A stretch of 64,000 nt of DNA from Dehalococcoidia bacterium (GTDB lineage: Bacteria; Chloroflexota; Dehalococcoidia; Lucifugimonadales; UBA3495). The notes under the pieces are model-generated. The model worked only from the letters and a program-made list of their open reading frames with translations, was not told where the DNA came from and searched no databases. The stretch lies in NCBI GenBank assembly GCA_965219395.1, contig CBDCNN010000002.1, forward strand, positions 2,247,547 through 2,311,546. The letters run 5' to 3'. Position 1 is the first letter of the stretch, and every line of letters begins with the position of its first letter. A program made the translations under genes and the position numbers. Shown one piece after another: positions 38,278 to 50,552 of the stretch.

Positions 38278-38405
38278 TAGATGGGCTGGTGTTGAACTAC
38301 AACTACTTCCGTCCACACCAAGCCCTTGACGGCAAAAAGCCCGCCGAAAGGGCGGGCGCGGAAGTCCCCTTTGACAGATGGCGCGACGTAGCGTCTATGA
38401 GCTAA
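38278..38405 (+). pseudogene. IS6-like (IS240-type) transposase, C-terminal fragment
   Basis: Hand translation from the TA: (L)DGLVLNYNYFRPHQALDGKKPAERAGAEVPFDRWRDVASMS*. Completes in frame the truncated gene at 49862-50552. Confidence 0.7.
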
Positions 38406-38505
38406 TTACCCAGCAAAATGCAACAGAACCGGGCAGACTGCTCCTGTCTTGCAACTCGTCCAGGGAAACCAGCTGAGAGGGGCGGGGCCTTTGTAACCCC
38501 TGCAG

Positions 38506-39384
38506 TTACTCTGCCCGGGCCATCCGTCGCAAGAGGGTACTCAGCAGGTCGACCCCAGCCACCAATAGCAGGTACCAGATAATAAGCAGCGTCACGTCGG
38601 TGTAGTGGAACCAGCTCAGGCGGAGCGTGAATTCCCGCCCCAGCCCACCGGCGCTGACGAATCCCACCACCACCGTAGTCCTGATTATCACCTCCCAGCG
38701 GTACAGCAGGTAGGTGATGAATTGGGGTATGGCTTGGGGCAGGATGCCGTACAGCAGCACCTGCATGTTTCCCGCGCCGCTGGCCCGCAGCGCCCGTGCC
38801 GGAGCCGGGTCCAGGTTCTCCACCACCTCGGCTGTCAGCCGCCCCACTATCCCATAGTTATGCAGTCCCAGCGCGGCGGCTCCGGGCAGGATGCCCGGGG
38901 ACAGGAAGAACACGATGATCATCGCCAGCACCAGCTCCGGCACGCCGCGGGAGAAGGTGTAGGACCCACGGGTCAGGTGGTAGGCTGCCCGCCCGATGTT
39001 TGACGGCCTGCCTCCCAGCGTCCCGTCGCTCACGTTCCGGGCGGCCATCAGGAGGGTCGCGAATGCCCCCGCCCCGGCAATGCCGATGGCCAGAAGGCTC
39101 ATCGCCAGAGTTTCCGCCGCCAACTTCCCTGTCTCCAGCCACCGTCCCGCCTGGGTATAGGCCGGACTAGCGTCCGAGTTCAGCCCAAGCAGCGACTCCA
39201 GGAACCGGACTCCGTTGCCCCACGCTCCCGCCGCGAACAGGCCGGAGAAACCCTTGGCGTCCCCGAAAACGATGAACCCCCACGCCGCAGCGGCCAGCAG
39301 CATGAAGACATAGAGAGAGGCCCTCGCGAACGTCGTCCTCCGCCGTTCCCGGTATGGCGTTCCCAGTGCCCGGCTTTCCGTCAC
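38506..39384 (-). CDS. phnE: phosphonate ABC transporter permease
   Basis: ...ALRASGAGNMQVLLYGILPQAIPQFITYLLYRWEVIIRTTVVVGFVSAGGLGREF.... GTG 39384 overlaps the upstream stop (GTGA). The ORF-track start 39564 lies inside the upstream gene. Confidence 0.85.
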   Translation of the reverse strand: MTESRALGTPYRERRRTTFARASLYVFMLLAAAAWGFIVFGDAKGFSGLFAAGAWGNGVRFLESLLGLNSDASPAYTQAGRWLETGKLAAETLAMSLLAIGIAGAGAFATLLMAARNVSDGTLGGRPSNIGRAAYHLTRGSYTFSRGVPELVLAMIIVFFLSPGILPGAAALGLHNYGIVGRLTAEVVENLDPAPARALRASGAGNMQVLLYGILPQAIPQFITYLLYRWEVIIRTTVVVGFVSAGGLGREFTLRLSWFHYTDVTLLIIWYLLLVAGVDLLSTLLRRMARAE

Positions 39385-40157
39385 GACACCAAGCTCCGCC
39401 GGACGTAGGTGCTCCACGCGTCCACTACCACGATTATCCCCACCAGGAATATCAGCAGTGTCCAGACTTGGCTGAACAGCAGATCGTGCATCGAAAGCTG
39501 GATCTGGTATCCCAGCCCCTGGATTCCCACGAAACTCAGGATAGCCGCGGACCGGATGCCGCACTCAAGGCGGTAAAAGGTGTAGCTCAGAATATCGGGC
39601 AGGGCCATCTGGAAGTGTCCGTACATAAGGGCAGCCAGCGGAGGCGCCCCCGACGCCCGCAGCGCCCGTAGCGGCGGTTGGGGAACATCCCGGATCAGCT
39701 CCGAGTAAATCCGCCCCAGGATGCCCCCATAGGGGATGGCCAGCGCCAGGATGCCTGCCATCGGCGACAGCCCCACGGACGCCACCAACAGCACCGCCCA
39801 CACCAGCTCATGCACTGACCGCATTCCCGCCAGCAAAACCCGTGAACCGACCATCAACGGCCGCCGCCATGGCGACGCCTCGGGGAGGACCGTCCCCGAG
39901 GCGATTACTCCCAGAGGCAGCCCGATTGCCACGGCCAAGGTTATCCCCGCGACCGCGTAGGCGATGGTGTACCAGCTTGCCTTGACCGCGATGGCCAGGA
40001 ATTCAGGCGTAAGGTCGGGGGGAAACAGGGCGAGAAGGAACCGCAGCGCGGAGGCTCCTCCCCCGGAGTGGAACAATGGAGCGTCCCAGTTGATGTTGCT
40101 CAGGCTCCAGCCCAACGCCGCCAGCAGCGCGAGGGTCAACAGCAGTCGGCTTTCCAA
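39381..40157 (-). CDS. phnE: phosphonate ABC transporter permease
   Basis: ...LRALRASGAPPLAALMYGHFQMALPDILSYTFYRLECGIRSAAILSFVGIQGLG.... Confidence 0.85.
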   Translation of the reverse strand: MESRLLLTLALLAALGWSLSNINWDAPLFHSGGGASALRFLLALFPPDLTPEFLAIAVKASWYTIAYAVAGITLAVAIGLPLGVIASGTVLPEASPWRRPLMVGSRVLLAGMRSVHELVWAVLLVASVGLSPMAGILALAIPYGGILGRIYSELIRDVPQPPLRALRASGAPPLAALMYGHFQMALPDILSYTFYRLECGIRSAAILSFVGIQGLGYQIQLSMHDLLFSQVWTLLIFLVGIIVVVDAWSTYVRRSLVS

Positions 40158-40174
40158 CAGTGCTGGGAGGGACC

Positions 40175-47982: not shown

Positions 47983-48623
47983 ATGCTGGGACTGGGCATC
48001 GACGCCTATCTGATACTCACCCACGACGACTATATCTACTTCTTCGGAGAGGACCGGTTCCAGCCCAGAGCCGTGGTGCCGGCTTCCGGCGACCCCATCG
48101 TGGTCACCTTCGTGGGTGAAGAAGCCGAAGTCAGGGAGTTCCTCGGAACGGCGAACGTGAAGGTATTCGGCTCGGTGGGCCAGCAGATCAAGGATGTTGT
48201 GGGCGCCATGCGGGAACTGGCGGAAAACAGGGACTCTATGACTGTGGGTGTCCAGATGTGGTTCAACACCCCGGCGTTCCTGCCCAACCTGTTCCAACGG
48301 GCCAACCTCAACGTGAACGTCGTTGACATCGCTCCGGTGATGGACGATTTCAGGATGGTCAAGGACGAATCCGAATTCGAACTTATGCGCCGGGCTTCGG
48401 AGATAGCCATCACCGGAATCGACACTGCCACACGCTGGCTCAGACGAGGAATCACGGAAAACGAGGTCGGAGCGGAGATCGAATACGCCATGTGCAAGGC
48501 CGGTGGGAGCGGCGTCGCAACCCCGGCGTTCGTTAACTCCGGCATACGCTCCGGTTGGCTCCACGGGACGGCGTCCCACAAGGTGATTGAGGCTGGAGAC
48601 CTGGTAGTGGTAGACGTGGTCCC
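47983..48623 (+). pseudogene. M24-family peptidase (Xaa-Pro aminopeptidase/creatinase-like), 3' truncated by IS630-B3; 5' region also frame-disturbed
   Basis: ...GIDAYLILTHDDYIYFFG...MVKDESEFELMRRASEIAITGIDTATRWLRRGITENEVGAEIEYAM...HGTASHKVIEAGDLVVVDV, then the IS terminal repeat. Confidence 0.7.
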
Positions 48624-48625
48624 TA

Positions 48626-49859
48626 AACCAAAGCCAAGGTGAAATGTGCAGACACATAGGGTAGATTTGTGAGGTAACTGGATTAACTGGTCTCAGGAGT
48701 TGTGGGGGTTGGTGATGAGTGTGAGGGAGATTGACCGGTTTCTTGAGCAGTGGGAGATGGATACAAGGGACCTGCACCGGAGGATGATTCTGGCGCCCAC
48801 GCCCAGGGAGCGTGAACGCTGGCACGCCGTCTGGCTGCTGGCGCAAGGCTGGACGGCATGGTCCACTGCGGAGGCACTGGGACGGGACCCCCACACCATA
48901 GGCCGGTGGGCCGCTGCCTTCGGGGAGGGCGGTCCGGAGGCCCTGATATTCGAGCAGACCGGAGGTTCCCCCCCGCCCTCGGCGAGGCGGAGCAGGCGGC
49001 ACTGACAGGGGCGGTGCAGGAGTTGCCAGGGGCGGCGGGTATTGAAATGGCCAACTGGAACTGGAGGGTGGTGAACCGGTTTGTCTGGGAACGGCGCGGC
49101 ATCAGCCTGAGCCGTAGCAGTTGTCTGAACTGGCTGCACCGGCTGGGCTTCGCCTTCAAGCGTCCCAAGAAACGGCTGCTCAAGGCGGATGAGGTCAGGC
49201 GGGAGTCCTTCGTGGCGGAGTACGCGGCCCTGATGGAGGAGGCGTGTCAAAGCAAAGCCAAGACATTCTTTGCCGACGAGGCCCACTTTCGAGCCGACGC
49301 CGAGTTGCGGGGCAAGTGGGTGCTTAGGGGAGAGCCGGCATTGGTGGATTCCAGCAGTCCGAGGTACGGAGAGAAGGCCAGTTACTATTCGGCGGTGTGC
49401 TTGGAGACCGGTGAGGTGGAATGGATGGACTTGGAAGGGAACAGCAACTCAGGAACGTCGGCAGCCTTCCTGGGGCAGTTGCGGGAGCGGCACACCGAGA
49501 GGCTGAACGTGATCTGGGACAATGCCCCGGCCCACCGCGGCGAGGCAGTGAGGGAATATCTCCAGACGCCGGGACTGAACCTGCGTCTGGTGAACCTGCC
49601 AGGCTACAGCCCGGATTTCAACGCTGATGAGGCCATCTGGGGCTGGGCGCGAGAGGAGGCCACCGGAAACCTGTGCCTGGGGACCAAAGCCCTGGTGCAG
49701 GAGAAAGTCGGCAACTTCTTGGAGGCGCTGGCCGGGCGGAAAGAGGAGGTCAAGCGCCGCTGCCGGACCATCCTGCAATCAAGGGCAGAGGAGTTCCTGC
49801 GTAACCCCAATCCAGGTCCCCATCACCAGCCATATGCACATCCCACCTTGGCTTTGGTT
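48626..49859 (+). mobile_element. IS630-family element, copy B3
   Basis: Terminal repeats at 48626-48641 and 49844-49859. TA at 48624-25 and 49860-61. The flanks belong to two unrelated genes. Confidence 0.9.
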
Positions 49860-49862
49860 TAG
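48700..49862 (+). CDS. IS630-family transposase OrfAB of B3 (orfA to 49005; C7 at 48968-48974; orfB to 49862)
   Basis: Nearly identical to the B1 proteins. The stop TAG is formed by the TA target plus the flanking G. Confidence 0.85.
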
Positions 49863-50552
49863 GTATGCTTGCCCGCTCTCTCGATGCTTCATCCCGCGCG
49901 ACGTCTTATCCCGATCGCGGGATGTCCCTTGCAACCGCTCGCTCAGATTGTTGTTGATTTCCGTCCGAATACCTTTGCTGACTACGTGTGTGACGGGATT
50001 GTTGGGAAAGGCTGTTTTGACGCCTTGCTGATAGGACCTCAGGCCGTCGGTCTTGATTTCCTCGGGAGCGTTGTCCGCCCGTTGTCTGGCCATAGCCATA
50101 GCGGTAGCCGCTGCCCTTGTTGTGCGCTCGCGGGAGAGGTAGGCGGCGAGGACGAAACGAGTCTTGGAATCCATTACGTTGAAAATCCAGTACTTCTCTC
50201 CGCCCAGCCGTACTTGCAATTCATCGGCTACCCATTCCGGCCCGGTGTCCACTGGTGTCGCCTCGACGACTTCCTTCAACCTTGCCGTATTGTCCCTCAC
50301 CCAGCGGTTGACGGTTGCGGCATTCGTGGGGCGGTGGAAGTAGTCTCCGATGTTCTCCGCTACACGGCGGTAGGATAGCCCGTCAAAGTACATATCGACC
50401 GCTGCGCCAATCTCAATCGGCGTAGCGTGTTGACGGCGTTTCTCCGGGTTGCTTGGGTCTATGGTCAAGACGGTTTGACCGCCGCCGACACGACAGGTTG
50501 TGCAATGCTCGCCAGTCTTGCGTTTGCAGGTTGAACCGCACAAGTGGCCCAT
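49862..50552 (-). pseudogene. IS6-like (IS240-type) DDE transposase, N-terminal three quarters, cut at the IS630-B3 junction
   Basis: Zn-finger-like CGSTCKRKTGEHCTTC. ...GLSYRRVAENIG...WVADELQVRLGGEKYWIFNVMDSKTRFVLAAYLS...IKTDGLRSYQQGV...NNNLSERLQGTSRDRDKTSRGMKHRESGQAY|L. The continuation is found at 38278-38405. Confidence 0.7.

Follow-up and report, generated by a model that had tools for sequence, protein, structure and literature searches.

Probable IS630-driven inversion between two CTAG sites in a Dehalococcoidia genome that carries a split IS6-like transposase gene

We analyzed a 64,000-nucleotide stretch of DNA (the window; C2:2247547-2311546) from the metagenome-assembled genome (MAG) of a Dehalococcoidia bacterium, an assembly of 4.25 Mb in 2 contigs (GCA_965219395.1). 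In the window a transposase gene resembling those of the IS6 family of insertion sequences (IS) lies in two pieces. Relative to the ancestral order, a 10.35-kb segment (38278-48625) is reversed with respect to the N-terminal part of this gene (the N-part) and everything upstream of it. The breakpoints are two CTAG sites 10.35 kb apart, one within the IS6-like gene and the other within a gene for an M24 peptidase, since sister contigs carry both regions unbroken. We consider it probable that the arrangement arose through an IS630-driven inversion by way of two inverted copies of an IS630-type element (the B type), with two insertions at one CTAG and later remodelling of the second junction.

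The two pieces were first compared with each other and with intact relatives. Read on the minus strand from 50552, the N-part open reading frame (ORF) runs from MGHLCGST to ...RESGQAY at base 49862 and comprises an N-terminal Cys-rich motif and the DDE domain; its frame then passes a TA (49861-49860) and enters the element IS630-B3 by the right inverted repeat. On the plus strand, the C-terminal part (the C-part), read from the TA plus G (38280), gives (L)DGLVLNYNYFRPHQALDGKKPAERAG...MS before a stop codon at 38403-38405; its translation after the TA is also given as (L)DGLVLNYNYFRPHQALDG...MS and stop. When the N-part, one TA and the C-part are joined, the result is an in-frame gene of 819 nt and 272 aa that reads AYLDGL across a CTAG at the join, and a Pfam match to the rve_3 domain (residues 200-252) bridges the join. 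Intact alleles have the same length (819 nt) and show 6-10 nt differences from the joined gene, and across 100% of its length the joined protein shares 97% identity with P0003, an intact 272-aa protein of a sister strain. The N-part is 98.6-99% identical to the 5' part of the intact genes in sister contigs L011-L018, and the C-part aligns with the 3' part of intact sister genes from exactly the CTAG onward. A tblastn search of the whole genome with the joined protein found just these two pieces; because the next match is a paralogue of only 31% identity, the halves do not derive from two paralogues. An earlier note on this DNA, made from its letters alone, had proposed two in-frame halves of a single IS6-like gene whose rejoining through one TA restores the AYLDGL frame and a CTAG. 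The translations, the 819-nt join and P0003 bear this out to the base, and the CTAG occurs as an empty site in sister contigs. The same note had named a second complete copy as the sign that the pieces come from different paralogues; no such copy was present in the genome.

The ancestral order was taken from close relatives. In contigs from five independent metagenome assemblies (96–99% DNA identity) the IS6-like gene is whole and stands in the order upstream genes, IS6-like gene, phn genes, DctP, tRNA-Leu and integrase. This collinear order is carried by L011/L013, L012/L016, L014 and L015/L017, which come from three samples, so that the comparison with related genomes advised in the earlier note could be made on single sister contigs. 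L011 lies on a 252-kb metagenome contig that also encodes P0003, and it aligns with the window in three blocks (Table 1), the first two of which overlap just on C-TA. Small coiled-coil ORFs, the IS6-like gene, four phn-type ATP-binding cassette (ABC) genes, DctP and the integrase follow one another in the same order in L012 (a 1.0-Mb contig), L013 and L014. The closest relative is contig ctg802835 (L015, L017), which has the same tRNA-Leu island as the window. Its order is SDR, BBE oxidase, amidohydrolase, NHL, beta-lactamase-fold and FN3 genes, two small ORFs, the IS6-like gene, phn, DctP, integrase pieces, a Xis-type helix-turn-helix (HTH) gene, PAS, a contiguous M24 gene and then IS21; in L017 the upstream genes, the IS6-like gene and everything from phn to M24 are found on one contig. 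In the window the upstream block has kept its place beside the N-part, and its orientation relative to the phn side is reversed. The phn ABC genes, DctP (the TRAP gene of the earlier note), tRNA-Leu(CAA) and an integrase remnant do lie between the halves, as that note had read them.

Both breakpoints could be placed to the base. Left empty, the site in the IS6-like gene has the sequence GCATAC-CTAG-ATGGG in L013; in L012 it is ...T-CTAG.... The M24 gene, which is contiguous in L015/L017 and encodes a full-length protein of 370 aa in homologues, contains in those homologues the sequence GTC CCT AGG TAT, read as VVPRYMGY across the site; CCTAGG is also found in this lineage, and in the window the gene reads GTGGTCC-C-TA before the IS begins.

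We refer to the two junctions of the reversed segment as J1 and J2. J1 consists of the M24 N-part ending in C, a TA, IS630-B3 from its left to its right end, a second TA, and G followed by the reverse complement of the IS6 N-part. Recombination of two IS630-B copies that occupied the two CTAGs in inverted orientation predicts precisely this structure. An independent contig, L018 (ERZ25072076, ctg172810_4x, 15 kb), carries the same J1 junction sequences and is 97.5% identical over 13.4 kb; its order is integrase, Xis, PAS, LuxR, M24 N-part, IS630-B, reverse-complement N-part and upstream genes. The sample that yielded L018 also holds the collinear L011/L013 at higher coverage (15x versus 4x), and inverted and collinear forms therefore coexist. 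The B copy at J1 is a 1266-bp variant in L018 and a 1240-bp variant (B3) in the window. The earlier note had described the other flank of B3 as an unrelated M24 peptidase fragment. The fragment is indeed of an M24 gene, but it is not unrelated, as it marks the other endpoint of the inversion. Its broader claim, namely that the interval was inverted or reshuffled by one or more recombinations of IS copies, is supported by the collinear order in sisters, by the IS630-B copy sitting exactly at J1 and by the CTAG at both breakpoints.

J2, which is known from this one assembly (J1 from this assembly and L018), has a different composition. The C-part meets the right end of a second kind of element, IS630-A2; the left end of A2 meets the right end of a B subtype, B'; and the left end of B' meets the left end of a truncated A fragment, beyond which lies IS5-like debris. 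That the halves flank different IS630-type elements had been recognized beforehand, and B3 and A2 confirm it; we can add that both contacts are made by right ends. Because a unique flank stays with its IS end through any recombination between IS copies, the contact of the N-part with the B right end and that of the C-part with the A right end must both be primary insertions at one CTAG, which gives an ancestral stack in the order N-part, B (inverted), A and C-part. One insertion and one recombination are consequently insufficient, and two insertions at one CTAG followed by a later loss at J2 are needed. A B-type left end abutting an A left end was found nowhere in the genome.

The 3' part of the M24 gene was likewise missing. 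A Pfam M24 scan of the genome returned full-length paralogues and, as the only fragment, that of the window, and tblastn and blastn searches with the 3' part met paralogues of at most 32% identity. The search for this part beside another IS630 end elsewhere in the genome, proposed in the earlier note, therefore came back empty. The DNA that lies beyond the M24 site in L015 matched nothing in this genome except IS fragments. We conclude that the M24 3' part has been deleted from the genome.

Table 1. Coordinates of the features at the locus and alignments of sister contigs to the window
Feature	Window position	Strand	Remarks
IS6-like transposase gene, N-part	49862..50552	-	691 nt; target TA next at 49861-49860
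IS6-like gene, C-part	38280-38405	+	Including stop; preceded by target TA 38278-38279
IS630-B3	48626..49859	+	1234 bp; flanking TA 48624-48625 and TA 49860-49861; left end at M24 N-part, right end at IS6 N-part
IS630-A2	35334..38277	+	2944 bp; nested IS110-family element ~35811-37493; right end ...GGACTAC, then TA, then IS6 C-part
IS630-B'	34098..35331	+	82% identical to B; single 411-aa ORF; in TA between A2 left end and truncated A left end
A(x), truncated left-end fragment of IS630-A type	33780..34095	-	IS5-like debris to its left, no M24 3' part
Inverted segment	38278-48625	+	Also given as 38280..48623; IS6 C-part, four phn-type ABC transport genes, DctP, tRNA-Leu(CAA), integrase remnant, Xis-type HTH, PAS, LuxR-type gene, M24 N-part
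tRNA-Leu(CAA)	44962-45047
M24 (Xaa-Pro peptidase type) gene, 5' part	47983..48625	+	Cut at CCTAGG; Pfam Creatinase_N and Peptidase_M24 positions 1-83 of 208
Upstream block	50553..60576	-	Two small coiled-coil ORFs, FN3 protein, beta-lactamase-fold, NHL, amidohydrolase, BBE oxidase, SDR
L011 1-10693	60576-49860	minus	98.6% identity
L011 10691-14652	38277-42237	plus	98.1% identity
L011 14777-19278	42228-46744	plus	96.3% identity
L015 1-215	50123-49909	minus
L015 313-10643	38277-48625	plus	97.6%

The elements at the junctions belong to two types. B-type IS630 elements measure 1234 bp between duplicated TAs and have the ends AACCAAAGCCAAGGTG and CACCTTGGCTTTGGTT; about a dozen copies with 96-99% identity are present in the genome, in addition to the B' subtype at 82%. 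The B3 and B' ORFs scored 144.6 and 148.4 bits, respectively, against the NCBIfam model for IS630 (NF033545, cut-off 100), and they also matched Pfam DDE_3 and HTH_33. A-type elements are 2.9 kb long because an IS110-family element sits within their transposase gene (282.9 bits with NCBIfam for the IS110 transposase inside A2). Five copies interrupted in this way are present, along with an uninterrupted relative at C2:673 kb. A2 itself is a chimera. Over its first ~250 bp it is like the C2:673904 type, and the sequence from about position 300 onward is nearly the same as that of the copy at C1:253, with exceptions in the final ~300 bp and in a ~900-bp tract of the nested IS110, where 20 differences occur.

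IS630 targets the TA of 5'-CTAG-3' and generates a 2-bp duplication (Tenzen & Ohtsubo 1991, as cited in Table 1 of PMC2577343). All 18 full B and B' copies have C-TA...TA-G flanks, as do the A copies with identifiable ends. Since A-type elements begin with GTAG... and end with ...CTAC, every A insertion rebuilds C-TA-G at both of its ends, and elements stack there; at six junctions B-type copies are found exactly in the TAs of A-type ends. As a separate observation, the reading frame is broken at a C7 tract (GGAGGTTCCCCCCCGCC) in 12 of the 12 B-type copies examined that carry the tract, and most B-type copies have a 110-aa HTH ORF and a 348-aa DDE ORF that overlap in different frames, where B' has a single ORF. 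This layout suggests programmed frameshifting or slippage and not random decay.

The IS6-like gene also shows lesions at its CTAG, or just 5' of it, in two sister assemblies that hold no IS at the site. In L014 (1625-1650) the sequence reads GCATAC-GA-CTAG, with 2 additional bp (GA) directly 5' of the CTAG and a resulting frameshift. In L015/L017 (L015:215-320) a stretch of 37 nt is replaced by 88 nt; the replacement is in frame, yields a product of 289 aa and ends 9 nt 5' of the CTAG. The 88-nt filler of L015 holds a second CAAGCATACGAC, all other homologues having the short form, and no source for it was found in the genome. These lesions may be IS630 excision scars, or they may be errors of the 10-11x long-read assemblies. 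That this CTAG is a recurrent landing and leaving site of IS630-family elements, with excision scars as the lesions and an inversion that might itself be transposase-made, seems to us an unlikely account. Were they true scars, they would show, in nature and in an uncultured bacterium, what cut-and-paste excision of IS630/Tc1-mariner-type elements leaves behind after end-joining repair.

From the arrangement of the junctions we infer a course of events in which the flip occurred by homologous recombination. At the start a single-copy, decaying IS6-family element stood between a catabolic gene block and the phn/DctP/tRNA-Leu island. Its transposase gene contains one CTAG, the target favoured by IS630-family elements, whose insertion duplicates the central TA. 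A B-type copy would have come to lie in that CTAG, inverted to the gene and with its right end on the N-part, together with an A-type copy in gene orientation and with its right end on the C-part. A further B copy would then have entered the M24 CTAG 10.35 kb downstream, inverted relative to the first B. Homologous recombination between these two inverted B copies would flip the segment and create J1, consisting of the M24 N-part, B3 and the reverse-complement IS6 N-part. The reciprocal junction expected from this exchange, namely reverse-complement M24 C-part, B, A and C-part, would have been remodelled later. In the simplest version of this remodelling, the A copy at the C-part would recombine with another A-type copy that stood beside B', and everything from the B copy through the M24 3' part into the adjoining DNA would be lost; what stayed would be a chimeric A2 with B' and a truncated A fragment beside it.

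Several points weigh against this scenario. The same IS is not found at both junctions; J1 has B3, J2 has A2, and the M24 3' part is gone. A B x B exchange would have left its reciprocal product at J2; the J2 observed is a different one and requires at least one event more. There are no surviving parental B copies that would reveal a crossover within B3. The sister contigs are low-coverage (4-19x) long-read metagenome assemblies. Finally, the DNA to the left of the IS cluster could be placed in no relative, and the rearrangements may be more extensive or more numerous than those described here.

Other routes to the same structure were weighed. A single B copy in the IS6-like gene might have attacked the M24 CTAG on the same molecule, in an intramolecular replicative or alternative-ends reaction, and inverted the segment in one step with a B copy at each end and no homologous recombination. 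Such a reaction yields the same products as recombination between inverted copies, it fits a B3 with TA on both sides and CTAG at both breakpoints, and the B-type copies are 96-99% alike and apparently were active recently. However, J2 does not have the second B copy that a one-step reaction should also leave. Transposition of IS630/Tc1-mariner elements is of the cut-and-paste kind, and replicative intramolecular inversion is not known to have been described for them; we regard the one-step route as improbable. The exchange might instead have taken place between inverted A copies in both CTAGs, in which case the A copy at J1 would have been precisely lost, B would have entered the restored CTAG and J2 would be the direct recombinant. 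The chimeric structure of A2 (left end type II, remainder type I) and the position of its right end on the C-part agree with this, and since A termini regenerate CTAG, a B copy beside or in place of an A copy is to be expected. Yet this course requires precise excision at J1 and a new B insertion while still leaving the M24 3' deletion to be explained, the A copies carry IS110 inside their transposase gene, and A1 and A2, whose end types looked reciprocal, turn out on closer comparison to be mosaics of gene conversion. The idea that a single inversion had made A1 and A2 a reciprocal chimeric pair was dropped, as column-by-column comparison gave mosaic conversion tracts, of which the shared central one also occurs in a stand-alone IS110 copy. 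Exchange between A copies is, in our estimation, quite improbable.

A mis-joined assembly was also considered, in which the true chromosome is collinear and the MAG was wrongly connected inside IS copies. The MAG contains many near-identical IS copies, comes in 2 contigs with a contamination estimate of 9%, and the collinear form coexists in the same samples. Against this, J1 with unique DNA on both sides of its 1.27-kb B copy was assembled independently in L018, from another sample; the short-range junctions of the N-part with the B right end and of the A right end with the C-part cannot be bridged by any single IS; and the junction of B and A left ends that a collinear path requires is nowhere in the assembly. 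Given L018 and the lack of any junction set that permits a collinear path, an artefact is very improbable indeed. Recombination between two inverted B copies, with a remodelled J2, is the reading we prefer.

Candidate anchors for fixing the left side of the locus or the history of the segment were tried and set aside. The protein encoded at 20689-22083 could not anchor the DNA left of the IS cluster, as it proved to be an IS1380-type transposase. A 98%-identical enoyl-CoA hydratase (ECH) patch at C2:2191404-2192118 offers a shared stretch of no more than 715 bp, and its neighbours differ. To check for simple nested insertion, the sequences on either side of the A1+B1 stack (window 1-585 and 4760 onward) were joined; the junction proved intergenic and uninformative, and the GC skew of the segment relative to its flanks was too weak and noisy. 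Exact-protein look-ups with 6775-7236, the window phn permease and the N-part/B3 fusion ORF gave no match. To the left of the locus (window 20689-25806) the IS debris includes the IS1380-type transposase gene at 20689-22083, whose homologues match Pfam PF13701 and PF01609, as well as a B-type left end at ~22825 and a stretch at 24354-24438 that resembles the 5' region of B elements.

The nature of the split gene was examined separately. It matched Pfam PF13610 (DDE_Tnp_IS240) with 55 bits, above the cut-off of 27, and its best NCBIfam match was the IS6 family (NF033587) with 100.1 bits, below the cut-off of 125; a 60%-identical homologue carries the NCBI name IS6 family transposase. The intact unit in L013 spans ~880 bp with one ORF and has a weak terminal pair of 16 nt, complementary at 13 of 16 positions, at 802-817 and 1666-1681. 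Its right end resembles ...CTGTTGCA... of IS26, its left end is degenerate, and a 15-mer from the right end had no second match within the window. In all five sister assemblies the element is single-copy at the same locus, and none of them offers an empty site. Allele differences are mostly non-synonymous (9/10, 4/6 and 5/6 differing codons), suggesting a fossil element, and the split gene has the look of an IS fossil that was hit by the rearrangement and did not drive it. In other species of the genus the IS6-like gene is multi-copy or at other places; when its synteny was followed across these species, the gene alone was shared (once with part of the upstream small ORF), which marks it as mobile there. 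The small coiled-coil ORF just upstream of it (window 50627-51407, minus strand) is weakly matched (38%) by a sequence that precedes the IS6-like gene in another species of the genus (G010, L003), and this ORF may travel with the element. Within the island, the integrase next to tRNA-Leu is an intact 295-aa ORF in L011 (17896-18783), is broken in the window (45070-46512, ending ...KFLTVDEA) and is split in L015; island content past the Xis gene varies among strains.

Taken as a whole, the rearrangement is of an ordinary kind, driven by IS in a genome rich in them; it reveals no new mechanism and bears no sign of a programmed switch. It has left two genes dead, one for the IS6-like transposase and one for the M24 peptidase, and has turned the phn/DctP island around. 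Its value lies in being a fully anchored example of reshaping by IS630-family elements, with base-resolved breakpoints and the ancestral state preserved in co-occurring strains. The regeneration of CTAG at A-type ends shows how elements pile up at one site. For annotation, the locus supplies two pseudogenes, a re-oriented island and strain markers with which both forms can be tracked in the community.

Chromosomal inversion by homologous recombination between inverted IS copies has been seen in many IS-rich bacteria. The locus resembles such inversions in that its breakpoints lie at IS ends, an IS bridges two once-distant half-genes at J1 and the ancestral order is kept in sisters. It differs in that the recombining IS is left at one of the two junctions, the other having a different IS630-family element, and in that the partner half-gene is deleted. 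With IS630 the elements share insertion in C-TA...TA-G at every B-type and A-type copy examined, as well as B3 and B' transposases that score above the NCBIfam cut-off; unlike it, they are undescribed elements of a Chloroflexota-like MAG, whose A ends rebuild CTAG on both sides and whose B copies have two ORFs at the C7 tract. The split gene, for its part, has in common with the IS6/IS26 family an IS240-type DDE domain, a best NCBIfam match to IS6, a one-ORF unit of ~880 bp and the N-terminal Cys-rich motif, whereas its score below the NCBIfam cut-off, its weak terminal repeats, its single copy at a fixed locus and its role as victim set it apart.

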